Notes: generated by a model from the letters alone, not told the origin. 64,000 nt of DNA from an uncultured Verrucomicrobiae bacterium (GCA_963825315.1 CAWGST010000001.1:2645460-2709459); one strand, 5' to 3'; counted from the stretch's first letter, positions 4,920-52,864 are shown. Translations and numbers: made by a program.

Positions 4920-4930
4920 GAGAACCTGCC

Positions 4931-34545: not shown

Positions 34546-34573
34546 CGGTCTTGAAGGCCATTAACGCGGTCCA

Positions 34574-37500
34574 TTATTGCAGAGCAATGACGCGATAGAA
34601 TCTCTGGGCGCCGGCGGGAGCGGGGTCGATGGCGTAACCCTGGCCGCCGACGATGCTGACGTTGTTGGTCAAGTTCTGCCACGCAGGGTCATTGAGGTCG
34701 TTTTTGAACTGCACCTGATACGTCCTTCCCGGCGTGGTTAACCATGTGACGGTCGGGTCCTGGGCGGCCCCGTTTTGCCAACTCACACCGTTGAAGGTGA
34801 GGCTTTGAATAACGAAGGAGCCATCCGAGTTGGTGGCGGCGGATGAGAACGGCTGGAACGCGAAGAGGTCACCCCATTCGTTGTAATCTCCCGACGCGAG
34901 ATCCGACGCCCAACTTTCGAACACGAGGGTTTCGCCCGCGCCGCTAAAGACGGGGGTCAACGATCGGTTGTTGGCCGGTCCGTATCCGAATAAATCGGGA
35001 GTGAGCAGTGTTGTCGTCCCTGTGAGCCGGGAATAAAGGAAAAGGCCAGGCACACCGTTGGTGTCGCCCGGCACGAGGTTGTTGGCAAAACTGCGATAGG
35101 CCACAAAAAGTCCGTCGCCGCTGATGGTTGGGGAATCCGAGTTTCCGTTGCCCCCGCCGCTGGAACTGTCATTCTGGCCGACAAGAATGTTGCTGCCTGT
35201 GGCAAAACTGTACAGATAAATTTGGTTGAAGGCCCCTGTCTGGCCCGCGACATAAACGAGATATTGGCTGTCCGCGCTGAATTGCATGGTGGCATGAGAG
35301 GAGGACGGCACGTTGCTGAGAGCCATACTTGTCCTGGCGACAGTATCAACTGCCCACGACTGGCTGGTGCCGTAATAGCCGATGCGCGTTCCGCTGGGAC
35401 TGATGGCAATGGGGCCGCCTCTCGTCAATTGGGAATTGGTGTAAATGTTTTCTCCAGACTGGGCGCTCCATAGATAAACGGTTGTTGAACTCCCGGTTCC
35501 GTAGGCGACGTGTAGGCCATCCGGGGTCATCGCGCCTGTGCAGCTCGCCGAGGTGCTGGCAAGCGCCGTGATGGCGCGGGTTGTGCCGGCCTGCATGTCG
35601 CGCCAATACAGATTTCCGGCTGGGTTGCTCACGGAGCCGGCAGCCAGATTGCCCGCTGTGCTTTGAAAGAGAACATAGCGGCCATCGCCGCTGATCGACG
35701 GCGAGTATGACGACCCGTTGCCAGGCCCGTTTCTGTTAGTATTGACACTGACAAGCAGGGTGGTGTTTGACTCAAGGTCGCGCAGAAAAACGTCCCGGGC
35801 GTTGTTGGTATCATTGGCCACAAGATTGCTGGCGCTGCTGGCAAACACCACATAGCGCCCATTGCCGCTAATGGCCGGGCTTGTGGACATGCCATTGCCT
35901 GGACCGGTCCCGTTCGTATTGACACTGACGAGGTAATTCGTGCCGGCAAGAATATCGCGCACAAAAACGTCCCGGTATCCGTTTGTATCGCCGGGAACAA
36001 GATTGTCCGCCTCGCTGTAAAAGGCGACGTAGCGGCCATTTGTGCTGACGCATGAACCGCCAATCTCGCTGGGACCGTCCGGGGTGATCGAGGCCAGCGC
36101 CGGAAGACTGGCCGAAATGAGCTCAGTCGTGTTTGCCGGCACATTGTGAACGAATACGTTGTAAACGTGGTTGCTGTCATTGGCCACGAGGCCTTCGCCG
36201 AGGGATTCGAACGCCACGGCATTGCCGTTGGTGCTCAAACGCGGAAATGTCATCAAACTTTCCGGGGAACTCGCGCCGTAACTGTTCGCATCGATCCACG
36301 TCGTTGTTCCCGCCTGCATGTCACGGAGAAAAAGATTGGTGCCCACGGCCGGAGAATTGGCGGTCAAGCTTGAGGCGTTGGCAAGGAAGGCGACGTAGCG
36401 CCCGGTGCAATCCATGGCCGGCCAATAACAGAGTGAGGTTGCTGGCACAACGCCGCCGGCGTTTCCGCTGGCCAGGGTCGTGGTGTTGCTTTGCGAGTCC
36501 CAGACTTCCACACAGGTTCGGCCAAGGGTGCTCCCGACGTTGGCAACGAACGCGATAAACCGTCCGTCGGGTGTCATATCGAGGTTCCGGGTGTTCAGCT
36601 CGGAGCCCGAGAGAAATCCGAGAGCGTTCGTGTTGACGATATCTGTCAAACCTGTTGCCAGGCTGTAACGGAGGATGACGCCTCCCAGCAACGAGGAAGA
36701 AACCCCGTTGGTCAGGGGACATGCCTCGTAGGCGACAAATTGCCCGTCGTGGCTCAGACTGAAATTGCAGGAAATGGCATTGGATGTGCCTTGCAATGAG
36801 TACATCACAGCATGAGCATCGGCACTGACCCACGTCGTCGTGCCGCCGATCAGGTCGCTGAGGAAAATCTCGCCAGTATTGGTAACTCCGGCCACGAGGT
36901 TGGTCGCCGCGCTGTAAAACGCGACATAGCGGCCATCGGTTGAAATCGCGGGCAACTCGGAACTGCCAGGCGAGCCGGCGACACCGGTGGACTGCGCGCC
37001 AACGCTGACCAGGGTTGTCGTTCCTGCCTGCGTATCGCACACGAAAACATCGGGAATCCCGTTGGTGTCACCAGGGGATATATCGCTCGAGGCGCTGACA
37101 AACGCCACATAGCGGCCGTCAGGGGTCATTACTGAACTCCGGGAAACTCCGTTTGGAGCGATGCCGTTGCTGCCGGCGCTGATGAGTGTTGTCACGCCGT
37201 TGACCACATCGCGCAGGAAAATCTGGCTTGTTCCAGATGGATTGTTTGTGACCAAATTACTTGCGGTGCTCTCAAACAGTGCGAATCGGCCGTTGGTGGA
37301 AATGGCGCTGGGCCAGGAATCGCCGTTGCCGCCGTCTGTCCCGGCAAGGTCGATGCTGACCAGGATCGTGTTTCCATTGGTTCGATCATGCAAAAAAACG
37401 TTTATGTGTGGTGTGAACAGAGTTGGAATGGGAATCCCGTTGCTGCTCATGGCCAGATTATTGGCCAGGCTGGCGAACAAGATATATCTTCCATCTGCGC

Positions 37501-37714
37501 TTATGACGGGTGCCAAAGAATCTCCGCTGCCACCAGCGGGCGGGGCAAAAATCCCACTTGCGACGCTAACAGGCTGGACCGCCGCATGGGTCGGCGGGCA
37601 AAACAGGGCCACGCAAAGCAGAAGGAATGCGACGTATTTCATGCCTGCGCCGGAGAGCATTTGATTGTTGGCCATAATTGGTGTTCTCGAAGGTTTACTG
37701 ATGGCAGGCGGCAT
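34574..37714 (-). CDS. Large secreted TolB-like/PD40 beta-propeller repeat protein (paralog)
   Basis: Same repeat architecture as 31198..34263, with C-terminal TYQVQFKNDL..W...RFYRV. The true start is probably an internal Met near 37640-37680. Confidence 0.85.
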   Translation of the reverse strand: MPPAISKPSRTPIMANNQMLSGAGMKYVAFLLLCVALFCPPTHAAVQPVSVASGIFAPPAGGSGDSLAPVISADGRYILFASLANNLAMSSNGIPIPTLFTPHINVFLHDRTNGNTILVSIDLAGTDGGNGDSWPSAISTNGRFALFESTASNLVTNNPSGTSQIFLRDVVNGVTTLISAGSNGIAPNGVSRSSVMTPDGRYVAFVSASSDISPGDTNGIPDVFVCDTQAGTTTLVSVGAQSTGVAGSPGSSELPAISTDGRYVAFYSAATNLVAGVTNTGEIFLSDLIGGTTTWVSADAHAVMYSLQGTSNAISCNFSLSHDGQFVAYEACPLTNGVSSSLLGGVILRYSLATGLTDIVNTNALGFLSGSELNTRNLDMTPDGRFIAFVANVGSTLGRTCVEVWDSQSNTTTLASGNAGGVVPATSLCYWPAMDCTGRYVAFLANASSLTANSPAVGTNLFLRDMQAGTTTWIDANSYGASSPESLMTFPRLSTNGNAVAFESLGEGLVANDSNHVYNVFVHNVPANTTELISASLPALASITPDGPSEIGGSCVSTNGRYVAFYSEADNLVPGDTNGYRDVFVRDILAGTNYLVSVNTNGTGPGNGMSTSPAISGNGRYVVFASSASNLVANDTNNARDVFLRDLESNTTLLVSVNTNRNGPGNGSSYSPSISGDGRYVLFQSTAGNLAAGSVSNPAGNLYWRDMQAGTTRAITALASTSASCTGAMTPDGLHVAYGTGSSTTVYLWSAQSGENIYTNSQLTRGGPIAISPSGTRIGYYGTSQSWAVDTVARTSMALSNVPSSSHATMQFSADSQYLVYVAGQTGAFNQIYLYSFATGSNILVGQNDSSSGGGNGNSDSPTISGDGLFVAYRSFANNLVPGDTNGVPGLFLYSRLTGTTTLLTPDLFGYGPANNRSLTPVFSGAGETLVFESWASDLASGDYNEWGDLFAFQPFSSAATNSDGSFVIQSLTFNGVSWQNGAAQDPTVTWLTTPGRTYQVQFKNDLNDPAWQNLTNNVSIVGGQGYAIDPAPAGAQRFYRVIALQ

Positions 37715-38501: not shown

Positions 38502-38601
38502 AACGAACTTGCCTGCTTTTGTGAGAACAAAGTTCTTTTATACATAACTCGCACGAGGCAGCGCCAATCTTTCAATTTTTTTGCATTTATTTTCTTCCCG
38601 C

Positions 38602-39591
38602 TCATTCGCTGTGCCGCAGGAGCCAAACCAGACGCCAGACCAGAAAGATGAGGAAACCCGCCCCGATCGCCGCCCCAAAGACGCCAATCACCCAGCCCAG
38701 CGACCGGCCGGTGCCCCAAATCGAAATTCGCCGGTTGAATTTGAATGAAAGCAGCGCCATCATGAACTCATCGGCCGAACGATAGCGCAACCACGGATTG
38801 GTCCGACACGCCTTCAGAACGATTCGGATGAATTGCGCCAGTTCAAGGTCATCCACCGTCGTCCCCAAATCCGCGGGCAAAACCGGGTATTCTTCCGCGC
38901 GGTTGCCTGTGCTCATTTCATAGAGAACTTTTCCAAGGGCATAGATGTCCGCCTGAGCCGTTCCGGGGCCTTCCGGCGCGATGAAACCCTCGGTGCCGAC
39001 ATACTCGCGCTCGTCGGACATCCCGGTGACCAGACCCACGTCGGCCAGCTTGGGAAAACCGTTGACAAAAATGATGTTCGACGGTTTGAGATCGCGGTGA
39101 ATCAGGTTTTGCCGGTGCAGAAATCCCAGCGCCGACGCGATGGCAGCGCCCAAGCGGATGCATTCCCCGACAGGCAGGCGGCCTCGCTGGCGAATGTCTT
39201 GCGCCAGCGTCCGCGGCAAATAAGTTTCGGCATTGATGGCTTGCCCGGTGGTTACGCCGTCGGCCAACTCCATGACGCAGTAAAAATAACCCTCCGCCTC
39301 GCCGCCCCCGACTTGAAGAATATCCACCAACCCGTCGTGCAATCGCGAAACCGGCTCAAATCTCAAAATGCCGGCCAACTCGCTCAGGGATATCTGCCGC
39401 CGCCCGCCCGCCCGAAAACGCACAATCTTGACGGCGCGATAGGCCCCGAGCGTGTTCCTGGCCAGCCAAACCTCACCGCTCGCGCCGCCGCCGATCCGCC
39501 GAATCATCTGATGTTCGGGAATGGAGACGGGCGGCCGGACGGAGGACGGTGAAATTGAGTCATGGCCGGAAGAATCTGGAGTTTTGTTCAT
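38602..39591 (-). CDS. Hanks-type Ser/Thr protein kinase with C-terminal TM helix
   Basis: IGGGASGEV, AVK, HRDLKPSN, ADVG, GTEGFIAPE, DIYALG; one C-terminal TM. Confidence 0.93.
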   Translation of the reverse strand: MNKTPDSSGHDSISPSSVRPPVSIPEHQMIRRIGGGASGEVWLARNTLGAYRAVKIVRFRAGGRRQISLSELAGILRFEPVSRLHDGLVDILQVGGGEAEGYFYCVMELADGVTTGQAINAETYLPRTLAQDIRQRGRLPVGECIRLGAAIASALGFLHRQNLIHRDLKPSNIIFVNGFPKLADVGLVTGMSDEREYVGTEGFIAPEGPGTAQADIYALGKVLYEMSTGNRAEEYPVLPADLGTTVDDLELAQFIRIVLKACRTNPWLRYRSADEFMMALLSFKFNRRISIWGTGRSLGWVIGVFGAAIGAGFLIFLVWRLVWLLRHSE

Positions 39592-40279: not shown

Positions 40280-40939
40280 TCACTTGACAGGAATTTCTGA
40301 AAAATGCGCCAGCGCCTCAAACAAGTCCCTTTTCTCCGGCAAATTGCGGCAGCGTCCGGGGCCTTTGACCAGGCCGTAGCCGATCCCGTAGGCCAGGCCA
40401 TTGACCACACAGGCGTCGGTTTGGTTTTTTTCCAATTGCCGCTCCGCCAGGGCAATGACCCGCATGCGATCGCCTTCCAACTCATATTTCCAACCCACCA
40501 ATCGCGCCTTGGGAAACCAGCCGCGCAAGCGCCCGAGGATTTTCGGCGTGGGCGCCAGCTCCGCCAGCACCGTTCCGCGCCGGGTGGAAATCTTGCGTGA
40601 TTTGATTTCCGATAATTCTCCGCCCGACGCCCGACGCCAGATTTTGCCGAAGGTGAAATCGCTCACCGCCGCCGCATGAAAAACCGCTCCGACTTCGCTT
40701 GAACCCAGCCCTTCCAGACGCCGGCTCAAGTCGGCGGCGGTGGTAAAAACCTGGACACTTTGCGCCTTGGACTCAATCCCGCAGGTTGAATAATGTCCGC
40801 GCAGCAACTCCACCTCGTGTCCATGTTCGACGAGGTAATCGGCCAATTCCGAACCGAGAGCGCCCGTGGAGAAATTGGTCAGGCGCCGGACTTCGTCCAG
40901 TTCCTCGTAAGTTGGCCCCGCCGTGACAATGCATTTCAT
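40280..40939 (-). CDS. CoaB-like phosphopantothenate--cysteine ligase domain protein
   Basis: IVTAGPTYEELDEVRRLTNFSTG, FHAAAVSDF, LVGWKYE; no CoaC domain. Confidence 0.8.
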   Translation of the reverse strand: MKCIVTAGPTYEELDEVRRLTNFSTGALGSELADYLVEHGHEVELLRGHYSTCGIESKAQSVQVFTTAADLSRRLEGLGSSEVGAVFHAAAVSDFTFGKIWRRASGGELSEIKSRKISTRRGTVLAELAPTPKILGRLRGWFPKARLVGWKYELEGDRMRVIALAERQLEKNQTDACVVNGLAYGIGYGLVKGPGRCRNLPEKRDLFEALAHFSEIPVK

Positions 40940-43539
40940 TTTGCAGTCCTTTTTGCACTGTCCGCGTCGCGCACCATCACCACATAATCGAGCGTCTGGC
41001 CCGGCACTTTCAACTTTTCGCCGGGCGCAAGGTCGCGGCTCCACAGTTCGGCGAAAGCGCGATTGAGCAGATGATCGCGCCAGACAGCCCCGGTTCCACT
41101 GGCTTTAAACCCGGCGGCGGCGAGCGACTCCCGCAATGCTTCCGCCGCGCTTGCAATCGCCGCATCCGGCTGCTTCAACGTCACGGTCGGATAAACGCCG
41201 GTCGAGAAGAGCACAAAAACCGTTGCCCCTTTCGCGGAGGGGTTGATGCGGAACTCCAGATCGGTTTTGAGCCTGGGGTCGCTCAGACGGCGCGTGGCGA
41301 TCCAATCCGCGCCTTCAACCTCGTTCGGCAGCACATCGAATGTGTTGTCCGAGGAACCGTCCACATCGGTATAAACCGGCCCTTGCGACTCGACGGGACG
41401 GCCGATAAAGCAGGCGGGATTTTCCGCGTTGGAGCTTTGCAAATCCTGCACCAGCGCGGCGGGGTCCGGCGCGCCTGCCGGTTTCTGGTAAATAATCATG
41501 CGGTCGCCGTGCCCCCGGCCATCGTCAACCTCCACAACGTTTCGCCCCGGCTTGAGCGGCGTTTTCCAGAAGAACACGTTTGCCACCGGGATGCCGGACA
41601 CGGGCGCAACTGTCCCGTCCCGCTTTTTCATCCCGGAATCCGGTATGCGATAACTTTCATTCTTAATTTTCTCAAGAGGCGCTCCGTTCAGTGTCAACTG
41701 TAATTCTTCGGCGTTGGAGTAGGCCTTTATGCCATTGTCGGGCGCAAAGGCCCGCAGAAAGTGGTGCCGCCCGCAAAGATGCACCACCGGCCTGGCGGGA
41801 TTGAGGAACGACTGAAACAAATAGTAAGTGTCCTTCGGCATGCCCGCCAGCGTCAGCAGCCCCTTGGTGTTGCGATTGTTTTTGAACTTCAAGTTGTAGA
41901 ACTCGCGGAAGTTCCACCATAAGAACATGGGGCGATTCTGCACGTCATTGCGGCAAACGGTCTGGAGCCGATACTCGGTAAACATCTCCGAGTACTCCTC
42001 AGGCTCGTATTTATCAACGGACCACTGAATGGCGCCGTACGGAACATGGTGGGTGATCCAATCGCCCGATCCGGTCTCGGAAACAATGGCATTTTGCGGC
42101 AGTCTGCTGAAATTGGTATAGGGGCCGTCGGTGTACCAGCCGTCGTAGGTGTTGTTCGCCACAAAATCGCAGTTCTGAGGTTCCCTGCCATTGGCCGCGT
42201 AAGTCACCAGGCGCGTGGGGTCCTCTTCCTGCCGAATCACGCTGGCGTAGTGGCTGACCACGTCCACAATGGTTTCGTTGCCGGCGCTCCAAAAAAGGAT
42301 GCTGGGATGGTTCCAGTTTTGCCGCACCATCTCACGGGTCAGGCGCTCGCCGTCGGGCGTAACGGTTTTTTCCTCGTTGCCCCGTGTCCAAGCCTGCCCC
42401 GAGAAGCCGTTCTCGGCCCACACCGCAATGCCGCGCTCGTCCGCGATGTCGTATTCCAGATGGCTGTGCGGATAATGCGGCAGACGGACCATGTTCACGC
42501 CCAGATCGGCTATCCACTGCCATTCGCAGCGCAAATCTTCATCGCTCACCGCGTTCCAGGAGTATTCATTTTGCGCATGCTTGTTGACGCCGCGAAACTG
42601 CGTCTCGCGCCCGTTCAGGAAAAAGCGCTTGTCCTTGATCGCGATGGTGCGCAGTCCCACCCGCTCCGTCACTGCGTCGCTTACCTGTCCGCCCACGCTG
42701 ATTTCAGTGCGAACCGTGTAAAGATTGGGCTGCCCAATATCCCAGAGTTTGGGCCGGGCGATTTTTCCCGCGGCCTTGATTGTGGCCGTTTCTCCGGCGG
42801 CAATGGTTTGTTTCGCCTCAAACTGCGCGCAAGCCGCGTTGCCGGGGTCGGTGACAAAATGGCGAACCACCACATCAACGGGCAGGGCGAGGGGATTCCG
42901 CACCACCGTCAGGGCGTTGAGATCGGCGTTGGCCTTGGTGATGCTGCCGGGTGTCAAATAAACGCCGCTCGAACCCATGTCCGGGAAAATATGCACCGCG
43001 CCGGTTTTCGCCAGCCAGGCCTTGCGGAACATGCCGCCATTGACGTAGTAGAGCGAGGAGCGCGAAAAGCAGTTCCGCGCGTCGCCATCGCGGTTGCTCA
43101 CGCGCACGGCCAGGGTGTTGGCCTGGCCGATCTTTAGCGCGTCGGTCAGGTCAAAGGCAGACGCCGAAAACGCGCCCTTGTGCCGGCCGATGAACTGGCC
43201 ATTGACGAAGACGTCTTTCACCGAGGCAGCCCCTTCCAGCACCAGATACACACGCCTGTTCCGGTCGGCCTCCGTCAGCGTTATGGTCTGGCGATACCAA
43301 CCGGCGGAGTTGTCAGGAAGGCCGGATTGGCGAAATACATGCGGAACAGCGATTTGCTTCCACTCCGCCGTTGTCGGTGGCTGGATCGTCGTCGCGTTGG
43401 TTTCAGCATCTTCGACAAACTCCCAAGTCGTCAGTGGAATGGACTCGCGTGGAGATGTTGCGGTTGATTTTGATTGCGTCCGCGTCGTGCATCCAGCGCA
43501 AGCGAGAGCAGCGAGTACGATTGTAACGAGTAATTTCAT
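40936..43539 (-). CDS. Glycoside hydrolase family 2 (beta-galactosidase/glucuronidase-like) lipoprotein
   Basis: Lipobox ACAGC, FFLNG..FRGVNKH, VRLPHYP, NHPSILFWSAGNE, VSETG. Confidence 0.88.
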   Translation of the reverse strand: MKLLVTIVLAALACAGCTTRTQSKSTATSPRESIPLTTWEFVEDAETNATTIQPPTTAEWKQIAVPHVFRQSGLPDNSAGWYRQTITLTEADRNRRVYLVLEGAASVKDVFVNGQFIGRHKGAFSASAFDLTDALKIGQANTLAVRVSNRDGDARNCFSRSSLYYVNGGMFRKAWLAKTGAVHIFPDMGSSGVYLTPGSITKANADLNALTVVRNPLALPVDVVVRHFVTDPGNAACAQFEAKQTIAAGETATIKAAGKIARPKLWDIGQPNLYTVRTEISVGGQVSDAVTERVGLRTIAIKDKRFFLNGRETQFRGVNKHAQNEYSWNAVSDEDLRCEWQWIADLGVNMVRLPHYPHSHLEYDIADERGIAVWAENGFSGQAWTRGNEEKTVTPDGERLTREMVRQNWNHPSILFWSAGNETIVDVVSHYASVIRQEEDPTRLVTYAANGREPQNCDFVANNTYDGWYTDGPYTNFSRLPQNAIVSETGSGDWITHHVPYGAIQWSVDKYEPEEYSEMFTEYRLQTVCRNDVQNRPMFLWWNFREFYNLKFKNNRNTKGLLTLAGMPKDTYYLFQSFLNPARPVVHLCGRHHFLRAFAPDNGIKAYSNAEELQLTLNGAPLEKIKNESYRIPDSGMKKRDGTVAPVSGIPVANVFFWKTPLKPGRNVVEVDDGRGHGDRMIIYQKPAGAPDPAALVQDLQSSNAENPACFIGRPVESQGPVYTDVDGSSDNTFDVLPNEVEGADWIATRRLSDPRLKTDLEFRINPSAKGATVFVLFSTGVYPTVTLKQPDAAIASAAEALRESLAAAGFKASGTGAVWRDHLLNRAFAELWSRDLAPGEKLKVPGQTLDYVVMVRDADSAKRTAK

Positions 43540-43615
43540 AAGTTATCGGCCATAAATCTTCTCCGGCTTTCGGTTTGTCGGTCAGGCAGGCCGTGACCAC
43601 AAAGGCGTTGGGGGT

Positions 43616-43873
43616 TCACGCACCGTATCCCTTGGGAGGGTTTTCTCGTAGCGCGATCGGGGCGGCGGCGGATTCAAACCCTTCCAACTCCACCCGCCGC
43701 ATTGTCTCTTGACCGCCGAAACGCTTTTGCGCGTCGAGAATTTCCAGCCCGGCCAGACGCCCTTCGCTGTCGTAATCCGCGGCGATGCCCTCGGCCAGAT
43801 GTTTGGTCGTGACCGTGGTTTTGCGGAAGGTGATGCTCAACGCATCCACTTCGGCGTCATAGCTGATCTTCAT
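43616..43873 (-). CDS. DUF2283 family protein (putative antitoxin)
   Basis: MKISYDAEVDALSI...IAADYDSEGRLAGLEILDA. Confidence 0.85.
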   Translation of the reverse strand: MKISYDAEVDALSITFRKTTVTTKHLAEGIAADYDSEGRLAGLEILDAQKRFGGQETMRRVELEGFESAAAPIALRENPPKGYGA

Positions 43874-43876
43874 GCC

Positions 43877-44131
43877 TTAAAAGTAATAGGTATAGACGGT
43901 TATCACAACTATTTCTTCCGTCTCCTCGACAAAGACAGGGCGCACCTGCTTGGTGGCATAAACCTTTCCGTTCCACTCGCGCTCATAGGCAAAATCTTTT
44001 CTGCACTCCAACCGCCCAAGCTCGGCTGCGCCCCACGCGCAAGTGCGGATGGCGTCCTCCACTTCCGCCACGGTGAAACCGCGTGAAGCGATATAACCCA
44101 AAGCGTGTTTGGAAAATCGAATTGTTTTCAT
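43877..44131 (-). CDS. DUF4258 family protein (putative RelE/BrnT-like toxin)
   Basis: IRFSKHA..RGF..EVEDAI...IVVITVY; 3 bp upstream of the DUF2283 gene. Confidence 0.75.
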   Translation of the reverse strand: MKTIRFSKHALGYIASRGFTVAEVEDAIRTCAWGAAELGRLECRKDFAYEREWNGKVYATKQVRPVFVEETEEIVVITVYTYYF

Positions 44132-44186
44132 TTCGCCGGGATGATGGGTGCAACCAGTTTACTTAAGTCCTTTTCATCTCCGGGCT

Positions 44187-44313
44187 GCCGAACGATTCAG
44201 CTTACCGACCGACCGCCGGGAACGGGCGTCGGCAGCGAATCCAGCGCCCGAAAAAGCCAACCCCCACGGAACCAAAGCACGGGCGACGGTTCGTGTGCGG
44301 CGAATGGTTAGGC
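44187..44313 (-). repeat. attC-like integron cassette recombination site (full, 127 bp)
   Basis: Minus strand: GCCTAAC-CATTC-GCCGCAC...GTAAGC-TGAATC-GTTCGGC; paralog of the 45039 and 49427 copies. Confidence 0.8.
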
Positions 44314-44372
44314 GGCGTCATTTCTTTCATTTTCTTTGCCTGAAGCCGGGCTGTTTTTGGGGAATCGTTCAT

Positions 44373-44461
44373 AATGGCTGTATACCACCGCCGGTTCGTT
44401 TATTGAAACACAAAAATCCAGTTCCTCCGGGCGGCGGTTCGTGTGCGGCAAATTGTTGTGC
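44373..44461 (-). repeat. attC half-site fused to promoter-like motif (type 2, copy 1)
   Basis: Minus strand: GCACAAC-AATTT-GCCGCAC-ACGAACCGCCG...TTTTTGTGTTTCAATAAACGAA...TGGTATACA-6nt-ATG. Confidence 0.6.
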
Positions 44462-44468
44462 CACACGG

Positions 44469-44981
44469 TCATGGTTGTCCTTCCTTCTGCTTCTGAATAA
44501 TCAAGCGCAACTCAGTAATGACACGCTGCCCTGCACTATACAAATCGGAACACTTGTCTCTTCCACTTTTTACCGACTCCAAATCGGTCTCAATGATTCG
44601 GACTCCGTCGTAGCAAACAAGGTAAAAACGAATACGTCCAGCATTGGGATATGGGTAATCCTGCGTCGGGGTCGCCTCATCGTAATGCTTCTCCGCAACC
44701 TTTACAAAACTCTTGGCAGAATCGCGCACAGATTCATGACCGATGCCCCCAAAAACACCGAATGTCCCTGTCGTATACACGCTGGCATCGCCGCTAGAAA
44801 ATGAGACAACACTCACGGTCCCTGATTCGATGGGCCAGTCCATGAGAACACCGTAGGCTCGCGGATACTCCGGTGTCGGCTTCTCGCCAAACTCCGCCGG
44901 TGGTGTGGTCAACATCTTCAATCGCAATTCGCGCATCACCTCGGCAGGACTCTTTTTTGGTGGCTCGTTCGTTTGTGACAT
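44469..44981 (-). CDS. Hypothetical cassette protein
   Basis: 170-aa ORF bounded by attC-like elements. The upstream in-frame hydrophobic stretch LIAVLVIGCFTA lacks a start codon. Confidence 0.65.
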   Translation of the reverse strand: MSQTNEPPKKSPAEVMRELRLKMLTTPPAEFGEKPTPEYPRAYGVLMDWPIESGTVSVVSFSSGDASVYTTGTFGVFGGIGHESVRDSAKSFVKVAEKHYDEATPTQDYPYPNAGRIRFYLVCYDGVRIIETDLESVKSGRDKCSDLYSAGQRVITELRLIIQKQKEGQP

Positions 44982-45038
44982 GGCAGTGAAGCACCCGATA
45001 ACCAGAACAGCTATGAGAGAATATGGGCGGATGGTGTG

Positions 45039-45164
45039 ACCCGCCGATTCCGCTCACCAACCGCCTCCGGGAACGGGCGTTGGCAGCGAATCCAGCGCCC
45101 GAAAAAGCCAAAGCCCTCGAAACCGAAACGTGGACGGCGGTTCGTGTGCGGCGAATTGTCCGGC
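45039..45164 (-). repeat. attC-like site, degenerate (126 bp)
   Basis: Same body as the other two full copies, but the core triplets are altered (GCCGGAC ... GGCGGGT). Confidence 0.7.
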
Positions 45165-45168
45165 TTCT

Positions 45169-45534
45169 TCATTCGAGTGCGGCGAAACGGTCTCGACCTC
45201 TCCAGAACGGGCATTGCGGGCAAGCCTCACCCTCCGGATAATCGATCCCTTCTTCATGCGGGCATCCGAAAATCTTCTCCACCATGGCCAGCGACTTCAC
45301 CTCGTGCTCCTTCAACCGCGCGAGAATGCTCTCCTGAATGTCGAGCTTGTGCCTGACATCTTTATCCTGGCTGAAATAGCGGTGGAGCGTGCCCTCGTCG
45401 CCATCGTAAAGAAAAATGCCGAGCACCGCCTTGGTGGCCTTTCTATCATCGGGGCCATAGAACGCCAGGGTGGCAAGCGGAAACCCCCGGTTTCCGAGCT
45501 TCGCCTTCCTGCGCAGTATCTTCATCGGCTTCAT
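45169..45534 (-). CDS. Conserved-looking hypothetical cassette protein with C-terminal Cys motif
   Basis: YGPDDRKATKAV and GCPHEEGIDYPEGEACPQCPFW; the stop is 4 bp from an attC-like site. Confidence 0.7.
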   Translation of the reverse strand: MKPMKILRRKAKLGNRGFPLATLAFYGPDDRKATKAVLGIFLYDGDEGTLHRYFSQDKDVRHKLDIQESILARLKEHEVKSLAMVEKIFGCPHEEGIDYPEGEACPQCPFWRGRDRFAALE

Positions 45535-45641
45535 GGTGTCGCTGTCGCCGAACGCCAGAATGAGCGGCCGCCGCCGGGAACGCAAGCCAAAGCATGAACG
45601 GCACGTCCATACGGGCGCATTTCATTTTTTTGGGTGGCCGC

Positions 45642-45716
45642 TCCTAATCTTAATCCTAATCCTAATCTTCTTCGCCCACAATTTGGATTAAGATTATGAT
45701 TAAGATTAAGATTAGG
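45642..45716. repeat. Hexamer-array palindrome (TAATCY)n...(RGATTA)n
   Basis: ctaatcttaatcctaatcctaatc ... gattaagattatgattaagattaagattagg. Confidence 0.8.
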
Positions 45717-45757
45717 AACCAGAAACCGCCCCCCAAAAAAACATTGAAATGCGCTGC

Positions 45758-46492
45758 TCATAGTTTGATCTTCACCTGATCCTCTTGCGCCCAGTCATTG
45801 TGTCCGCAAGGAATCTCGATGAACTGAGCGCCGGGAATCTGTCTTGCCAGAGCTTCAGCATGTCCAATCGGGATGATCGTGTCATCCCTGGCTCCGAAAA
45901 TCTCAACCGGGCCGGCATAGCGCCTCAGTGATTCCACATTATCCCAAGCGTCGCGGACCAGAAGCCGGACAGGCAGAAAAGGGAAATGCCTGGCGGCTAC
46001 ATTCGCCAAAGTATCGAAAGGCGTCACCAGCACGATCTTGTCCGGCGCAATTTTCTCCCGGGCCAGAGCGCAGGCGGGGCCGCTGCCGATGGACTCGCCC
46101 AGGACACAAACCGGGATGTTCAAATTCCGAGAGCGCAAGAGTTGGTACGCCTCTGACGCCGCCCGGTTCATGGATTCCAGGGAGGGACTCCCTTCACGAG
46201 AGCCGTATCCGGGGTACTCGAGCACGTAGAGGGAATCCTGCCCAGACATGCGCCGCAGGACGTAATCCCTGTCCGCAGCCTGGCCGCCGTTCCCGTGCAG
46301 CATCAACCAAATCGCGCGGGCGTTTGGCGCTTCCCGACAATAGCCTATGACGCGGGAGCCGTCCGACCATGGAGCCAGGCTGGTGGACGGTGTATCGTGC
46401 GTCGGGAAAAAGAGCATGGACCGTTGCCGAAACCAGGCAATCGCAACGACGGCCAAGTAGAACACAAGCAGAATTGCCGCTAATCGGAGCAC
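45758..46492 (-). CDS. Alpha/beta hydrolase
   Basis: HGNGG, YPGYG, nucleophile GESIG, DTIIP, GHN. Confidence 0.88.
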   Translation of the reverse strand: MLRLAAILLVFYLAVVAIAWFRQRSMLFFPTHDTPSTSLAPWSDGSRVIGYCREAPNARAIWLMLHGNGGQAADRDYVLRRMSGQDSLYVLEYPGYGSREGSPSLESMNRAASEAYQLLRSRNLNIPVCVLGESIGSGPACALAREKIAPDKIVLVTPFDTLANVAARHFPFLPVRLLVRDAWDNVESLRRYAGPVEIFGARDDTIIPIGHAEALARQIPGAQFIEIPCGHNDWAQEDQVKIKL

Positions 46493-46505
46493 GGATTTAA
46501 TAGGG

Positions 46506-46538
46506 AAAGGCTAAAGGCTGAAGGCTAAAGGCTAAAGG
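46506..46538. repeat. 7-bp tandem repeat (aaaggct)n
   Basis: aaaggct aaaggct gaaggct aaaggct aaagg. Confidence 0.75.
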
Positions 46539-46731
46539 AAAAATTGAAAGGCACGCCCCCAAGTCGGAAGCGGATTGGCTCATTTTGGCCATGTTAACTA
46601 AGTTTATCATGGTTTGACCCGCCTTCGCCGCAGCGGCTTCGGCGCGGCAAGCCCGCTTGAACTCTGATTACGTTGCAAGGCCTTCATTTTAAAGGTTTTT
46701 TAAAAAGTGTGACTTTTTGCATAAAAACAGA

Positions 46732-47790
46732 TCAGGGCCGGCCGGGGGAGATCGAAGCAACGGGACGCACGGTCAGGGCGCACGCGATGACGGGATTGCT
46801 CCGGGGCTGACAAAGGCCGCCTTGCGCGTTGTCCAGAAATTGCCCGCCGTTAATGAAGTTGTTGGTGCAGGAATCGTTGTTGACCTGGAACGCCCTGCCG
46901 CCGCACCCGACCACCCGCAGGTTGTTGAACTTGTTGCCCGTGCATTCGGTGGCGGGGTAAAGCCACCAACCGAAACGGCTCCACTCGCCCGCCTGCGCCA
47001 TAAAGACTCCGTCGTGCCGGCTGTGGCGAATCGTCACTCCTTCAAACACGTTGTTGTGCGAATCCCGCATGAAAATGCCCAGGTCGTTGCCAGTTAGAAC
47101 CGCGCCGTCAATGACATTATGGTCGAACTCCAGATCCAGCGAGATTCCCGCCGCCAGGTTGTCGTGCAGGTTCAACTGGCTGAAATGGCTGTCCTCGGTC
47201 CGGTAACAGGCCAGCCCGTCAAATTGATTGTCGTAGGCCGTGTAATCCCGCAACGTCAGACGCCGCGTCCGCCCTGTGGACACCAAGCCGCCGGAGCGGC
47301 AACGGCGGCAGATGACATGCTCGATAATGGCGTTGTCCGCGTCGCAGACTTGAACTCCGTTGTTATTAATGAGGACGCCATTGGTAAGAATTCGCCAAAG
47401 TTCCGTCTGCTGGTGAGTCCGGTTGCCGTCCACGAGCAGGTCGGAAAGATGCAGGCGCTGTGTCGGCCCTTTGGCTTTGTCCTTCGGAGGGGCCAGGATG
47501 ACGACGGTGCAATTGGCGTTGTCGGCCAGGGACAGAATCGTCTCCGGTCCGGCGCCGCGCAACGTTTGCCCGTCCTGCCGCAGGATAATCGGCTGATGGA
47601 CGAGGTAAATCCCCCGGCCCAGAACGACTTGAGCGCCGACGCCAAGCTTGTCCAGCGCCAGTTGAATCCCTTCCCCGCCGGCGACAGGAGGGACCTCCAG
47701 CGTCGCCGCGAGGCCGGACAAAGGAATGAGGAAGAGCAAAAGAACATTGGCGGCAAATGTTCCCGCCTTCAAGCTAAAGTTTGAGCTCAA
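46732..47790 (-). CDS. Secreted right-handed parallel beta-helix protein
   Basis: Signal peptide, GIQLALD, DGN, and repeated N..DG/N..AG beta-helix turns. Confidence 0.75.
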   Translation of the reverse strand: MSSNFSLKAGTFAANVLLLFLIPLSGLAATLEVPPVAGGEGIQLALDKLGVGAQVVLGRGIYLVHQPIILRQDGQTLRGAGPETILSLADNANCTVVILAPPKDKAKGPTQRLHLSDLLVDGNRTHQQTELWRILTNGVLINNNGVQVCDADNAIIEHVICRRCRSGGLVSTGRTRRLTLRDYTAYDNQFDGLACYRTEDSHFSQLNLHDNLAAGISLDLEFDHNVIDGAVLTGNDLGIFMRDSHNNVFEGVTIRHSRHDGVFMAQAGEWSRFGWWLYPATECTGNKFNNLRVVGCGGRAFQVNNDSCTNNFINGGQFLDNAQGGLCQPRSNPVIACALTVRPVASISPGRP

Positions 47791-47832
47791 ATTATTCCTT
47801 CGATGGTCATAGTCGCGTGCCGATTAATTTTT

Positions 47833-47924
47833 ATTCTACAACGGCTGGTTCGTTTGTTGAAACACAAAAATCCAGTCCCTGCGGGCGGGGGTTCGTGCGC
47901 GGCGAATTGTCAGCCGATGTGATC
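47833..47924 (-). repeat. attC half-site fused to promoter-like motif (type 2, copy 2)
   Basis: Minus strand: GATCACATC-GGCTGAC-AATTC-GCCGCGC-ACGAACC...TTTTTGTGTTTCAACAAACGAA...TTGTAGAAT. Confidence 0.6.
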
Positions 47925-48128
47925 CAATCAGTTGGGCCATATAAGACCATCGCAAAGCGTGTGCCGGATAGTCAGCGCAACAGCCGCGTTCGCATTGTGG
48001 CGATTCTTTTGCGCAAAGTGGCGTTAGAGGATATCTGCCGGAATGTTATAGTTGCATCAAGACCAATGGGCTTCGTCTAAAATGCTGGACCAGCCAAAGC
48101 CAGCCGGCGCTCCCGGCGGTCTTTTAGT

Positions 48129-48962
48129 ATGACTAACTCTGAAACAAAAAGTTCCCGGGGGTTTACCCTCATCGAACTGCTCGTGGTCATGGCAATCATC
48201 GCCATCCTGGCAGCGATGCTCCTGCCCGCGCTGGCCAGGGCGAAAATGTCAGCCCAACGCACTGCCTGCATAAGCAACACCAAGCAACTGACGCTTTCCT
48301 CGCTGCTTTATATTTCTGACGCCAACGGGCGCTGCTTTCCCGCTTATGACAACGTAGCCGAAGACGCGGGCGGGCTTTGGATGAGCAATCTGACTGCTTA
48401 TGATGCGAAGGTGGACAAGGTGCGTTTGTGTCCTTCCGCCAGCATTTCGAATTACAATGTGAATCCCAATTACGCGGGCGCGGGCGCGTGTGACACCGCT
48501 TGGGTCTGGAATCAGTCAAGGCCGTGGTTGCAGGGCAGCTACGCCATAAACGGCTGGTTTTATTCCAGCACCGGCGCCGGAGCATGGCTCGCCAATCAGA
48601 ACGAGGCAACCAACTACTTTAACAAGGAAGGGAATGTTCAGAAACCGTCCCTGACACCCATCTTTGCGGACTCCGTCTGGGTTGACTTCGAGCCGATGGA
48701 AACGGACATGCCAGGTGTAAATCTTTATCTCTGCGGCGGATGGGTGAACCCTGCTGCGATGGAGCGCATCGTCACGCCCCGCCACGGCTGGACAAATCCC
48801 AAATTGGCGCCGACATTCCATCCCGTTAACCAAAGACTCCCTGGCGGCATTGATATCGGGATTATCGATGGCCATGTCGAACAACCCAAATTGGAGCAGC
48901 TTTGGAATTACTCCTGGCATTTGAATTGGGTTGTCCCAAGTCCAAGACCGGGCCTTAAGTAA
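48129..48962 (+). CDS. Prepilin-type N-terminal domain protein (DUF1559-like)
   Basis: [46 protein letters not shown]...IDGHVE. Confidence 0.9.
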
Positions 48963-48984
48963 CGGCAAATCCATCATTGCCGAT

Positions 48985-49416
48985 TCATTTGGGCGTGGTC
49001 TTGATCTCCACTAATTTTGCAATCATCGGAATGTCGCTCAATGAGGTTGCCGGAAAACGAATCCCCCGCCCTTCGGCATACGGCCTCGCTTCTGAAAACA
49101 TCTTCTTGATCGCAACGGGAAGCGAACTGGCCATGGCAAGGCCATAGGCGCGCTCACCAAGAACAATCGCCAGCCAAACCTTCTCCTTGTCCGGCGTGAT
49201 ATAGAGCAGCGTTCTCTTCTTGTGCTGCAGCAGGCACATGCGCCCAAACCCGGCTTTGGACGGCTTCCACTGCTTGTCGAGCGGAACGAACATCTCTTCG
49301 ACGGCGTGGACAATGCCAGACCACAAATCGCCGGCAGAACCGAGAATGGCCTTCAGTTCGGAGTCAGTTGGGGGTTTTGCCTTGGCGGGCATCTTACGAA
49401 TGGTGTATTGTCTCAA
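48985..49416 (-). CDS. DUF3788-like cassette protein
   Basis: KKRTLLYITP, VLGE, YAEGRGIRF, LVEIK. TTG start 10 bp after a GTTAGGC core site. Confidence 0.65.
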   Translation of the reverse strand: MRQYTIRKMPAKAKPPTDSELKAILGSAGDLWSGIVHAVEEMFVPLDKQWKPSKAGFGRMCLLQHKKRTLLYITPDKEKVWLAIVLGERAYGLAMASSLPVAIKKMFSEARPYAEGRGIRFPATSLSDIPMIAKLVEIKTTPK

Positions 49417-49426
49417 TACGCTGGTC

Positions 49427-49552
49427 GCCTAACAATTCAACTCACCGACCGCCGCCGGGAACGGGCGTTGGCAGCGAATCCAGCGTCCGAACAAGCCAAA
49501 GCCCCCGAACCCACAGCACGGGCGGCGGTTCGTGTGCAGCGAATTGTTATGA
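49427..49552 (-). repeat. attC-like integron cassette recombination site (full, 126 bp)
   Basis: Minus strand: TCATAAC (contains the upstream gene's TAA stop)-AATTC-GCTGCAC...GTGAGT-TGAATT-GTTAGGC. Confidence 0.85.
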
Positions 49553-50377: not shown

Positions 50378-50475
50378 ACTTTTATTATAGCACGGTCGCT
50401 TCGTTTATTGAAACACAAAAAGCCAGTCCTTCCGGGCGGCTGTTCGTTTGCAGCGAATTGCCAGCCGATGTGATC
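50378..50475 (-). repeat. attC half-site fused to promoter (type 2, copy 3)
   Basis: Minus strand: GATCACATC-GGCTGGC-AATTC-GCTGCAA-ACGAAC...TTTTGTGTTTCAATAAACGAA...TGCTATAAT-6nt-ATG. Confidence 0.65.
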
Positions 50476-50596
50476 ATATCAATGAAAGGGTCCTCGGAAA
50501 TTGGTATTCGTTCATTTTGATCAGCGATTTTCCAAAATCACTTTCATGGTATGGTTGTAGCAAAATCATGCGCGGCTGGCAAGACGGCGCCGCAAA

Positions 50597-50627
50597 TTAG
50601 GATTAAGATTACGATTAAGATTAGGAG
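50597..50627. repeat. Hexamer array (RGATTA)n, single arm
   Basis: ttaggattaagattacgattaagattagg. Confidence 0.7.
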
Positions 50628-50649: not shown

Positions 50650-51138
50650 TCAATACATGACTTTTCCCGGCATCCGCCGCCATTCCTCGAAGATTTCGAC
50701 GGCCTTGTCACGAAGAATTTGTCGCATGGGCAGCCGGCGCGAGGCCGGGGGCAGCGCCAATTCACGGTAGAGAGCCTCGTCGTCAAATCCCGCCCCGGCG
50801 GCGTCGGTGCGCGTGGCCGCGAAGACGATGCGCTCCACCCGCGCCCAATAGGCCGCGCCCAGACACATCGGGCACGGCTCGCAACTGGTGTAAAGAACGC
50901 ATCCTTGCAACACAAACGCACCCAGCCGCGCCGCCGCCGCGCGAATGGCCATGATTTCCGCATGGGCCGTCGGGTCGTTGCTCGAGGTGACCTGGTTCCA
51001 GCCGGTGGCGATGATTTCATTTTCCCGCACCATGACGGCGCCGAATGGCCCGCCGTCCCTGGCGCGCATGTGCTCCGCGGCCAATTGAATGGCGCGTTGG
51101 ATGAAATCGAGGTCCCGGGAGTTTGGCGCGGGCTGCAT
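50650..51138 (-). CDS. Nucleoside/guanine deaminase (CDA-like, GuaD type)
   Basis: GGPFGA, DPTAHAE, YTSCEPCPMC. Confidence 0.9.
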   Translation of the reverse strand: MQPAPNSRDLDFIQRAIQLAAEHMRARDGGPFGAVMVRENEIIATGWNQVTSSNDPTAHAEIMAIRAAAARLGAFVLQGCVLYTSCEPCPMCLGAAYWARVERIVFAATRTDAAGAGFDDEALYRELALPPASRRLPMRQILRDKAVEIFEEWRRMPGKVMY

Positions 51139-51151: not shown

Positions 51152-52864
51152 TTAAACGAAAAGGCTGGTCTTGCGCAGCTTCATCGAATCGATCAGGCCC
51201 TGATCGGTCAGCTTCAATTCGGGAATGGGCGACAGGCTCAAGAAAGAAAGCGTCATGAACGGGGCCTCCAGTTTGCAGCCCATCGCCCCCGCCTCCGCGT
51301 TGAGCGCGTCCAGCCGCTCAATGACTTCTTCCAGGGAACGATCGGAAACCAGGCCGGCCACGGGCAAGCCCAGTTCGGCCGCGACGCGGCCCTTTCGCAC
51401 CGCGACCTGGCCCCCTTGCAATTGTTCCAGCGCCTGGATCGCCCGGCAAATATCGGCGTCATTGGTTCCGACCACCACCACGTTATGCGCGTCGTGCGCC
51501 ACCGTCGAACCCAGCGCGCCGTCCTTGAGTTGAAACCCGCGCACGAAACCGACCCCGACGTTGCCGGTGGCGCGGTGCCGTTCCACCACCACCAGCTTGA
51601 GCACATCCCGCCCGGTGTCCGGGACGACACGGCCCTGCTCGATCTTGGGCGCCACGATAATCTGCCGGGTCACAATCTGGTTGGGAACAATTTCGATGAC
51701 CCTGATTTTCCCGGCCCGCGCGGCCTTGACCTCCAGATCGCGCACCTGGTAGCGCAGGTTCATCGTCCCCCGCGGCAGGGGCGTGGCCGCGGCGGCCCTG
51801 GCCAGATATTCCCCGTCTTCGGCCACGAGGACCCCCTTTTTCCAGGTCTGGCGGACGGCGAACTTTTTCAAACTGTCAAAAACAATAAAATCCGCCCAAT
51901 ACCGGGGCGCAATGGCGCCGAGATTCTGCAGCCGGTAGTGCCGCGCCGTGTTGATGCTGGCAATTTGCAGCGCCGTGATCGGCGGCAGGCCGTGGCGGAT
52001 GGAGAGGCGCACCGCGTGGTCAATATGGCCTTCCGCAACCAGGTCGCCTGCCAGCTTGTCATCCGTGGCGTAGGAGCAATTGACCGCGTTGTGCGGGTTG
52101 ATCAGCGGAAGCAGGTCAACCAGATTCCGCTCGGTGCTGCCTTCGCGCAGCAAAATGTGCAGGCCCAGCCGCAGTTTTTCCCGCGCCTCCTCCAGCCCGG
52201 TTGATTCGTGATCGGAGCGCACCCCGGCCAGCGCGTAGGCGTTGAGATTTTTTCCGCGCAAGCCGGGCGCGTGGCCATCGACCGCCTTGCCCTTGCTCTT
52301 GCCCACGGCGATTTTGGCCAGCTCGCTTTTCGCGCCCAGATAGACCCCCGGGTAATTCATCAATTCGGCGATGCCCGCCACGCGCTCATCGGCAATCATC
52401 AAGCCCAAATCATCGGCCGTGATGCGCGCCCCGGCTGTTTCGAGCGCGGTCGCCGGAACGCAGGAAGGCAGCATGATAAAAAAATCCAGCGGCAGGTTTT
52501 TGCTTGATTCCAGAACGTAACGGATGCCGTCCAAGCCCAGCACATTGGCGTATTCGTGGGGATCGATGATCACCGCCCCCGTGCCATGAGGCACCACCGC
52601 GCGGGCGAATTCCGGCGCGGTGAGCTGCGAGCTTTCGACGTGAAAATGCCCGTCAATCAGACTCGGCGCGATATAGGCGCCGCGCAGGTCAATGGTCTTG
52701 CGTCCCTTGTAATCGCCCAGGCCGATGATCCGCCCGTCCTCCACCGCGATGTTCGCGTCATAAATCTCGCCGCTGAGGACATTGACCAGGCGGCCGTTTT
52801 TGAAAAGCAATTCGGCGGGCTGTTCGCCGCGGGCCACGGCCAGTTTATGACGCACGTTTCGCAT
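51152..52864 (-). CDS. ade: Adenine deaminase
   Basis: DGHFHVESS, DPHEYANV, DGHAP, DHE, TDD, VAHDAHN, FLSLSPIPELK. Confidence 0.93.
   Translation of the reverse strand: MRNVRHKLAVARGEQPAELLFKNGRLVNVLSGEIYDANIAVEDGRIIGLGDYKGRKTIDLRGAYIAPSLIDGHFHVESSQLTAPEFARAVVPHGTGAVIIDPHEYANVLGLDGIRYVLESSKNLPLDFFIMLPSCVPATALETAGARITADDLGLMIADERVAGIAELMNYPGVYLGAKSELAKIAVGKSKGKAVDGHAPGLRGKNLNAYALAGVRSDHESTGLEEAREKLRLGLHILLREGSTERNLVDLLPLINPHNAVNCSYATDDKLAGDLVAEGHIDHAVRLSIRHGLPPITALQIASINTARHYRLQNLGAIAPRYWADFIVFDSLKKFAVRQTWKKGVLVAEDGEYLARAAAATPLPRGTMNLRYQVRDLEVKAARAGKIRVIEIVPNQIVTRQIIVAPKIEQGRVVPDTGRDVLKLVVVERHRATGNVGVGFVRGFQLKDGALGSTVAHDAHNVVVVGTNDADICRAIQALEQLQGGQVAVRKGRVAAELGLPVAGLVSDRSLEEVIERLDALNAEAGAMGCKLEAPFMTLSFLSLSPIPELKLTDQGLIDSMKLRKTSLFV

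Follow-up and report, generated by a model that had tools for sequence, protein, structure and literature searches.

The 64,000-nucleotide window analysed here, which is taken from the genome of an uncultured Verrucomicrobiae bacterium (GCA_963825315.1, CAWGST010000001.1:2645460-2709459), contains between 44.2 and 50.5 kb a row of mostly small and unrelated minus-strand genes separated by repeated elements of the attC type. [quoted passage not shown] CALINs are defined by at least two attC sites with no integron integrase nearby (4 kb by default; 10 kb for pseudogene searches) (Cury et al. 2016, PMC4889954), and with three sites and no intI gene the window falls under this definition. The arrangement is not that of a complete integron, with intI, attI, and the cassette promoter Pc by the first cassette, as the array abuts the deaminase genes cda and ade and begins with a truncated element (D6c). 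Nor is it that of a sedentary chromosomal integron, which is a complete integron in all genomes of a species or has more than 19 attC sites (PMC4889954), as there are only three full sites and no intI. When the 64 kb were searched with three integron integrases (tblastn, E ≤ 10; IntI1, used solely as a probe, as well as IntI_L102 and IntI_L035 from related loci), neither an integrase nor a remnant was found, the best match being noise with an E-value of 0.38. This supports an earlier note on the same DNA, which had reported that no integrase lies in the window and had considered a CALIN.

The bottom strand of an attC site folds as an imperfect hairpin, whose shape is recognised by the integrase IntI through the R box, an unpaired spacer, the L box, and bulged bases. 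IntI cuts in the R' triplet (G/TT, top strand) and thereby excises or inserts the upstream gene as a circle. The three attC-type sites of the window (family D4, with copies D4a, D4b, and D4c) are paralogous repeats of 126-127 nt that a repeat search found to be 78-87% identical in pairs over 113 nt (44196-44308, 45047-45159, and 49435-49547). They share an 18-nt core with a second repeat family (D6a, D6b, and D6c), and this core occurs six times in the window compared with 0.22 times expected by chance, each time on the minus strand and within 44.2-50.5 kb. The order of the elements along the minus strand is D6c, D4c, D6b, D4b, D6a, and D4a (Table 1). A covariance model (R1), in which an attC-style structure was written onto a 29-copy alignment (A2), recovered only the D4 sites in the window, on the minus strand and with 107-124 bits, while no other match exceeded 12 bits anywhere in the 64 kb. 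The model is strand-specific, with D4c reaching 123.8 bits on the minus but only 14.4 bits on the plus strand. Rfam at gathering thresholds returned nothing relevant in the window.

In D4c, the R'' box is TCATAAC (49552-49546) and holds the TAA stop codon (49549-49547) of the 276-aa gene, the L'' box GCT[G]CAC is followed by [A]CGA[A]CCGCCGCC, and the R' box is GTTAGGC (49433-49427), with the crossover point predicted at G(49433)/TT. The site folds into one long imperfect hairpin (z -3.1), which forms on either strand (z about -3). D4a has the boxes GCCTAAC (R'', 44313-44307) and GTTCGGC (R', 44193-44187) and one extra T in its 3' arm, which weakens the predicted fold. In D4b both core triplets are gone, AAC having become GAC (R'' GCCGGAC) and GTT having become GGC (R' GGCGGGT). 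The D4b hairpin is kept, with pair 10/137 switched from A-T to G-C in a compensatory change, although it folds less well than that of D4c, and the site is predicted to be unable to recombine. Compared with the attC box pattern (R'' RYYYAAC, R' GTTRRRY), D4a and D4c agree and D4b fails. The earlier note had already described the three elements, their R''-spacer-L''...L'-R' layout on the minus strand, the stop codon inside R'', and the loss of both triplets from the middle copy, and in all of this it was right. Two of its details need qualification: the extra G of L'' is present on the top strand, so that the bottom-strand position is C and not the usual G, and the next gene starts 10 bp after GTTAGGC if a TTG start is used, whereas the gene caller takes an ATG 33 nt downstream (49393).

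The D4 family was traced beyond the window by a genome scan with the core followed by BLAST searches with full elements. As a genome-scan probe the 18-nt core was dropped, since it proved unspecific and gave chance matches in GC-rich genomes; a two-arm pattern performed better. R1 identified 47 further sites in a first set of related loci (such loci or contigs, compared with the window, carry L numbers below), 76 in a second set derived from the two-arm pattern scan, 19 at loci that share synteny around the adenine deaminase of the window, and a further 3 in contigs from metagenomes, which gives a total of about 145 sites beyond the window. They are carried by about 30 metagenome-assembled genomes (MAGs), nearly all labelled Verrucomicrobiota; the few other carriers are short contigs in otherwise-labelled bins. 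Dense arrays are found in Verrucomicrobiota MAGs (e.g., eight sites spaced 385-572 nt in L080), and in R1 searches all sites within every locus have the same orientation. The family can be summarised by the consensus GCCNAAC - 5-6 nt - (C)GCT[N]CAC[N]CGA[A]CCGCCGCC … GGCGGCGG·TCG·GTG·AGC - 5-6 nt - GTTNGGC. Members of the core family are 125-132 nt long, and both they and the copies in the window lie inside the attC range of 57-141 nt; in addition, there are subfamilies with lengths of about 103 nt and 118 nt.

Among 29 sites tested for the boxes, AAC is present in at least 28 and GTT in 24-25. L'' GCT[G]CAC pairs with L' GTGAGC, and the R-L spacers (5-6 nt) are unpaired, being variable in sequence and non-complementary. 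It has been described that, in attC sites, two or three bases of the AAC-bearing top-strand arm are extrahelical, the distal one being a conserved T on the bottom strand, that a 6-bp stem between the first and last bulge is needed for efficient recombination by IntI1, and that VCR2 and attCoxa2 have a three-bulge layout at positions 16, 20, and 24 (PMC5027507). The D4 family has three unpaired bases on the AAC-bearing arm at exactly these bottom-strand positions, separated by 3 + 3 bp. In 28 of the 29 sites position 24 is T, in agreement with the conserved T, whereas the other two positions vary, as is to be expected of unpaired bases: position 16 is C in 17 and G in 10, and position 20 is T in 18, A in 6, and G in 4. 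As the bulges lie on the AAC arm, the top strand corresponds to the minus strand of the window and the recombinogenic bottom strand to its plus strand, following the definition in PMC5027507.

The hairpin appears in divergent members as well. In a 50-site set that includes them, compensatory double changes are seen at 24 of 29 pairs; double-change cells number 79 compared with 25.9 +/- 4.4 in shuffles, and the covariation score is 0.198 compared with 0.091, neither value being reached in 500 shuffles. Pairing amounts to 89.5% and drops to 21-45% when the partner columns are slid. Variant sites either have altered arms with the same bulges or keep the arms around wholly different or shorter loops. 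In variant L031-5159, for example, GCTG[G]AG[A]CGA[A]CTGCCG pairs with CGGCAG·TCG·CT·CAGC, and in the ~103-nt subfamily the distal stems covary freely. Furthermore, the sites are placed as expected for cassettes. In a test of 30 evaluable sites with open reading frames (ORFs) of at least 40 aa, a same-strand ORF ends within -40 to +12 nt of R'' at 25 sites, compared with 25% at positions drawn at random from these loci and 9 of 30 when the opposite strand is considered, and an ORF starts at most 60 nt past R' at 17 sites (27% at random).

Two other occurrences of the family were noted. In a more distant Verrucomicrobiota MAG, an adenine deaminase gene is immediately followed downstream by at least 16 co-oriented sites of the 118-nt subfamily (33-48 bits), which are interspersed with small ORFs (L143:13061-21511). 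The array of the window occupies the same chromosomal neighbourhood but has the opposite orientation, and no intI was found in the L143 stretch examined. In the SPRUCE 67 MAG, 30 nt identical to the 5' arm of D4c (L038:7139-7168, minus strand) are located inside the 5' end of a serpin gene, where they would encode part of the signal peptide (MKANNSLHTNRRPRF…), and lone 5' arms touching gene starts are also found in L065 and L031.

Bona fide integron integrases adjoin D4-type arrays in two related MAGs. The products of the L102 and L035 genes match the IntI1 probe with 50% identity (E 8e-78) and 36% identity, respectively, pass the curated NCBIfam integron-integrase model TIGR02249 (404.2 and 265.9 bits; cut-off 265), and both contain the IntI-specific insert (LPDALARKYP…W.W.WVFP). 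In L102, intI (231-1376, minus strand) has two plus-strand sites beside it (1868-2003 and 2359-2495), and in L035, intI (4123-5289, plus strand) lies next to four minus-strand sites at 1143-3706. At each of the two loci, intI transcription and the top strand of the array run in opposite directions, each leading away from the other, which is the canonical integron layout and agrees independently with the strand assignment based on the bulges. The spacer between intI and the first cassette in L102 (1340-1620) contains four GTCGCAATATT-like motif copies and a GTTAGAC core, which are candidates for IntI-binding repeats and the attI crossover point, respectively. Beside the first site of three other arrays, a divergent tyrosine recombinase gene is found instead (L213:1480-2547, minus; L234:2063-2983, plus; L235:2032-2967, minus). 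These recombinases are 296-352 aa long, lie 55-1500 nt from the first site, and possess all catalytic residues, but they lack the insert of about 45 residues and fail TIGR02249 (145-166 bits, cut-off 265). L235 and L102 belong to the same MAG (AMR_MDS_5606). Among the checks that the earlier note had proposed, recovery by a covariance model (here strand-specific), an intI gene in relatives, and further copies at gene 3' ends have thus turned out in favour of its integron interpretation, as has the maintenance of the hairpin by compensatory changes.

The second repeat family (D6), which the earlier note did not mention, was obtained from the repeat search of the window. When all six elements are aligned, the likeness of D6 to D4 is confined to the first ~45 nt, i.e., the attC 5' arm (…AACAATTCGCCGCACACGAACCGCCGCCCG), and the D6 elements do not have any L'/R' arm. 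The arm is followed by a promoter-like module, of which an anchored alignment yielded a conserved block of about 55 nt (GGRACTGGATTTTTGTGTTTCAAYAAACGAACCGGCCGTCGCATAAT). In D6c, the first element past the conserved backbone gene cda, the module contains TTTCAA-N18-TATAAT, with the ATG of the 276-aa gene 6 nt further. D6b is located upstream of the group of beta-helix, hydrolase, and 121-aa genes. D6a, with a residual stem of 9-11 bp, immediately follows the 170-aa gene and precedes D4a by 61 nt. The window has no copy of the module beyond these three.

Elsewhere, the module was found ahead of unrelated genes in 15 metagenome contigs, by a scan with a D6-specific core, and in SPRUCE 67. Its conservation stops a few bases past an ATAAT-like hexamer, and the unrelated genes begin 7-40 nt later, a pattern that would be expected if the module were a promoter with an AT-rich upstream element, and it may act as one. 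The order module-gene-attC recurs in L248 (attC 94.8 bits) and L253 (26 bits); the remaining module-bearing contigs have no attC. Six module-bearing loci searched against Rfam at E ≤ 0.01 gave nothing relevant, the single match being a tmRNA fragment in L246. In most copies the module has another upstream flank (…GGATCGGACGGGCGCCGCCCGGAGGGAC), and an attC 5' arm is in its place only in the three copies of the window. Both types of flank end in the 10-nt sequence CGCCGCCCGG, which is common to the attC stem and the usual upstream flank of the module and suggests that arm and module were joined by microhomology at this point. As a separate observation, the copies in L243-L257, which are contigs of peat and soil metagenomes, and in L125 (7924-7949) take the form of a ~55-100-nt promoter-like module (…TGGATTTTTGTGTTTCAATAAACGAACCGGCCGTCGCATAAT…) upstream of unrelated genes, mostly away from attC.

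Two other explanations of the D6 elements were discarded. D6 might be a diverged short attC site, but no alignment with the 3' arms of the ~103-nt subfamily is obtained, and D6b and D6c escape detection by R1. The right half might be a degenerate L'/R' arm turned into a -10 box, but the same module is found in metagenomes without the attC arm. We conclude from these sequence comparisons that D6 is a truncated attC site that appears to be joined to a reused, putative promoter module. Rather tentatively, and with more doubt than confidence, it may be proposed that D6 records a route by which orphan arrays are domesticated, in which the module replaces the 3' half of an attC site through a join at CGCCGCCCGG. 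If true, a single event would both immobilise the cassette, through loss of the crossover site, and provide it with transcription independent of Pc, so that loss of mobility and gain of expression would be coupled, and the module could be a general activator of acquired genes in Limisphaerales.

The host is a soil or peat Verrucomicrobiota (Limisphaerales), the adenine deaminase of the window having 92-93% amino-acid identity to those of Limisphaerales and SPRUCE 17 MAGs. The same gene order is present with 99.3-100% identity in at least nine assemblies, i.e., in every assembly found with these genes (ERZ25039540, a 1.44-Mb contig, ERZ25039509, ERZ25039526, ERZ25039473, GCA_052915825.1, GCA_052916085.1, GCA_052915745.1, and two Logan runs), and no cassette gain, loss, shuffling, or presence/absence polymorphism was seen among them. 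Together with the dead site D4b and the three truncated sites, this conserved order bears out the suggestion of the earlier note that the array is partly frozen. The closest relatives are syntenic with the window exactly up to the stop codon of cda and then have a different, convergent gene; the array is thus located at a synteny breakpoint and not at a clean insertion site, and a search of these relatives for an empty site found none. Where synteny ends, a run of TAATC-like units (CTAATCTTAATCGTAATCTTAATCCTAAT) lies on the minus strand between the cda stop codon and D6c (~50595-50625). At the other end, L263, which represents a second lineage, was compared with positions 41843-45921 of the window: its GH2 glycoside hydrolase gene is only ~87% identical up to ~43190, after which the initial ~350 nt of the gene and the whole array are ~100% identical. 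This step in identity was considered as the array boundary and rejected, as it represents a homologous-recombination breakpoint inside the GH2 gene near 43190, which indicates that the array region recently moved between diverged backgrounds.

Several observations weigh against the assignment as a CALIN and the account of its parts given above. R1 was built from this family, so that its scores alone show family membership and not attC identity; the covariation alignment (A3, 50 sites) was fitted to the model's structure, and covariation is weak among the 29 closest copies because their stems are near-invariant. Bottom-strand position 16 is C in D4a, D4b, and D4c, where G is usual, and for D4a the predicted structure of lowest energy differs from the canonical hairpin (z +0.27). 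With regard to the array, R1 finds no attC after the DUF4258/DUF2283 genes (no site at 43540-43615) and none between the four genes of the D6b-D4b segment, several of which are larger than typical cassette genes, and the 4,263 nt between D4b and D4c exceed the default 4-kb clustering distance of IntegronFinder. A generic sigma-70 consensus scan flags D6b alone among the D6 copies, and the region contains no excess of promoter-like sites compared with shuffles. Finally, IntI may not be the only enzyme that acts on the family, given the recombinases of L213, L234, and L235. These recombinases form the basis of a reading in which the sites are substrates of a shorter, Xer-like tyrosine recombinase and the system is integron-like but not a classical integron. 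Although genes without the IntI insert, with all catalytic residues present, adjoin three arrays divergently, we consider this improbable: true IntI proteins are found at two arrays, one IntI could serve both L235 and L102 as these share a MAG, the bulged bases contacted by the IntI insert are conserved in the family, and the genes in question could be unrelated neighbours or degenerate intI.

It is even harder to maintain that the sites belong to a palindromic intergenic family unrelated to integrons, such as repetitive extragenic palindromic (REP) sequences, bacterial interspersed mosaic elements (BIME), miniature inverted-repeat transposable elements (MITE), or hairpins at transcript ends, which merely resembles attC. 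The 75-87% conservation across genomes, which is higher than usual for the attC sites of mobile integrons, the intergenic position, and the isolated 5' arms outside arrays (L038 and L065) would fit such a family. However, the uniform orientation per locus, the tie to ORF 3' ends, the AAC/GTT boxes combined with the 16/20/24 bulge geometry, and arrays that begin beside a bona fide IntI in the canonical divergent layout make this very unlikely; moreover, the sites have no T-run and are therefore not intrinsic terminators, and there are no copies in the window outside the 6-kb stretch and no Rfam match. A more serious alternative, which we regard as possible though not as probable, is that a complete integron is present elsewhere in the genome and the array is its active satellite, created by rearrangement or by IntI-mediated insertion at a secondary site, and that an IntI still exchanges cassettes in trans via D4a and D4c. 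Both sites retain AAC/GTT and the full hairpin, the MAG AMR_MDS_5606 has family sites on at least three contigs (L102, L235, and L238), and a 16-site array lies next to the adenine deaminase in L143. Half of the CALINs in the IntegronFinder survey are located in replicons encoding IntI, and rearrangement and secondary-site insertion are known origins (PMC4889954; 10.1101/2022.09.11.507474). On the other hand, all assemblies found agree in their gene order, D4b is a dead site, and another three sites have been truncated.

If the array is a CALIN, only D4a and D4c, which keep AAC/GTT, should still be recombinable, and then only by an integrase acting in trans; recombination between D4c and D4a would excise a circle of 5,240 bp. 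With D4b dead and the D6 elements presumably representing attC 5' arms whose 3' half was replaced by a lineage-wide promoter-like module, most gene boundaries would no longer be recombinable and the array would effectively be fixed. As there is no Pc, transcription probably starts at the three D6 modules and would yield three units, running from D6c through the 276-aa and DUF3788 genes, from D6b through the beta-helix, hydrolase, and 121-aa genes, and from D6a through D4a into the DUF4258/DUF2283 pair.

Compared with the CALINs described by Cury et al. (PMC4889954), the window likewise combines two or more attC sites with the lack of a nearby intI gene or pseudogene, has fewer than six sites (as do 83% of CALINs), and carries cassettes mostly of unknown function without resistance genes. 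It differs in that D4b and D4c are 4.26 kb apart, in that one gene is inverted, and in that half of the inter-gene elements are truncated attC arms with a promoter-like module. The sites are also similar to the Vibrio cholerae repeats (VCR) of the sedentary chromosomal integron in this species, which are long (~125-130 nt), homogeneous in sequence within the family, and have three bulges at bottom-strand positions 16, 20, and 24 with a conserved T at 24 (PMC5027507). Both systems form co-oriented arrays of small unknown genes including toxin-antitoxin cassettes, but their primary sequences are unrelated, position 16 is C or G in the D4 family and not G, the family spans many Verrucomicrobiota MAGs and not one genus, and the window array has no intI, attI, or Pc.

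In class 1 integrons, the qacEdelta1/sul1 3' conserved segment provides a case in which loss of an attC 3' part removed the crossover and locked the neighbouring genes. The window differs from such fused cassettes in that the missing half was replaced three times by the same module, which is also found outside integrons. The closely similar sequence of ~55 nt before unrelated genes in several genomes and contigs further recalls reused or 'mobile' promoters (PMC3575422), although the abstract of that report does not mention joining to attC arms, and the promoter activity of D6 is putative.

These results add a well-characterised attC family with VCR-like three-bulge geometry to a phylum in which integrons had been noted but not detailed: Verrucomicrobia are listed among the phyla with integrons, and abundant CALINs were reported in the same survey (PMC4889954), so that the earlier note went too far in calling the lineage little studied. 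The window is a clear example of an orphan cassette array that is decaying and becoming fixed in a natural soil or peat population, and R1 and the consensus can be reused for cassette annotation in Verrucomicrobiota MAGs. If anything new about integron evolution is to be learned here, it might come from two parts only, the attC-arm/promoter chimeras and the Xer-like recombinases beside some related arrays.

Table 1. Elements and genes of the array and its flanks, in minus-strand order (positions in the window)
Feature	Position	Strand	Remarks
Adenine deaminase	51152-52864	-	upstream backbone
Cytidine/dCMP-type deaminase (cda)	50650-51138	-	upstream backbone
D6c	50380-50481	-	attC 5' arm (R''-L''-5' stem) and ~55-nt promoter-like module; no R1 match
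Cassette gene, 276 aa	49547-50377	-	no significant Pfam, NCBIfam, or PADLOC match
D4c, intact attC site	49427-49552	-	R1 123.8 bits, E 2.5e-37
Cassette gene, DUF3788	48985-49416	-	PF12663, E 6e-17; called start 49393
Prepilin-type N-terminal methylation domain protein, 277 aa	48129-48962	+	inverted relative to the array
D6b	47829-47930	-	attC 5' arm and same module, TCAACA-N16-TAGAAT; no R1 match
Right-handed beta-helix protein, 352 aa	46732-47790	-	PF13229, E 3e-11; bigger than typical cassette gene
Alpha/beta hydrolase, 244 aa	45758-46492	-	PF00561, PF12146, PF12697
Small hypothetical gene, 121-138 aa	45169-45585	-	121 aa from called start 45535; D4b next
D4b, attC site	45039-45164	-	R1 117.4 bits and alignments
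Hypothetical cassette gene, 170 aa	44469-44981	-	stop within first bases of D6a
D6a	44375-44476	-	attC 5' arm and module; weak full-length R1 match (11.7 bits, E 0.15)
D4a, attC site	44187-44313	-	R1 107.3 bits
DUF4258	43877-44131	-	PF14076, 24.6 bits, just below cut-off 25
DUF2283	43616-43873	-	PF10049, E 2e-13
GH2 glycoside hydrolase	40936-43539	-	distal flank

The earlier note had described the genes of the array as short, unrelated, and co-oriented, which is mostly true, the prepilin-type gene on the opposite strand being the exception (Table 1). Homologs of its product are encoded in L218 and L054, where they lie between attC sites in cassette orientation, while the other cassette proteins have no homologs in the other arrays compared. 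PADLOC and NCBIfam searches with the cassette proteins returned no defence model and no named function. DUF4258 has been listed as a type II toxin family of the RelE/ParE superfamily (PMC11980606), and the DUF4258 and DUF2283 genes at the distal end of the array may thus form a toxin-antitoxin-like pair.

Other repeats were observed elsewhere in the window. A motif AATGACGAAATCC, which is part of longer GAATGACGAA-type repeats, occurs four times (28294-28306, 61502-61514, 61721-61733, and 61760-61772) compared with 0.15 times expected; three of the copies are located around the 5' end of the window's serpin gene, in both orientations, and what is annotated as the N-terminus of the serpin may consist of translated repeats. 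Positions 31198-37714 contain two large paralogous minus-strand genes (1021 and 1046 aa) made of repeats of ~59 aa (177 nt), whose upstream regions of ~110 nt are 86-89% identical (34396-34508 and 38522-38636), which suggests a duplicated promoter or leader. Lastly, a 73-nt repeat with 97% identity (18517-18589 and 19686-19758, 1,169 nt apart) spans an ATG and is probably the duplicated 5' end of two neighbouring genes.

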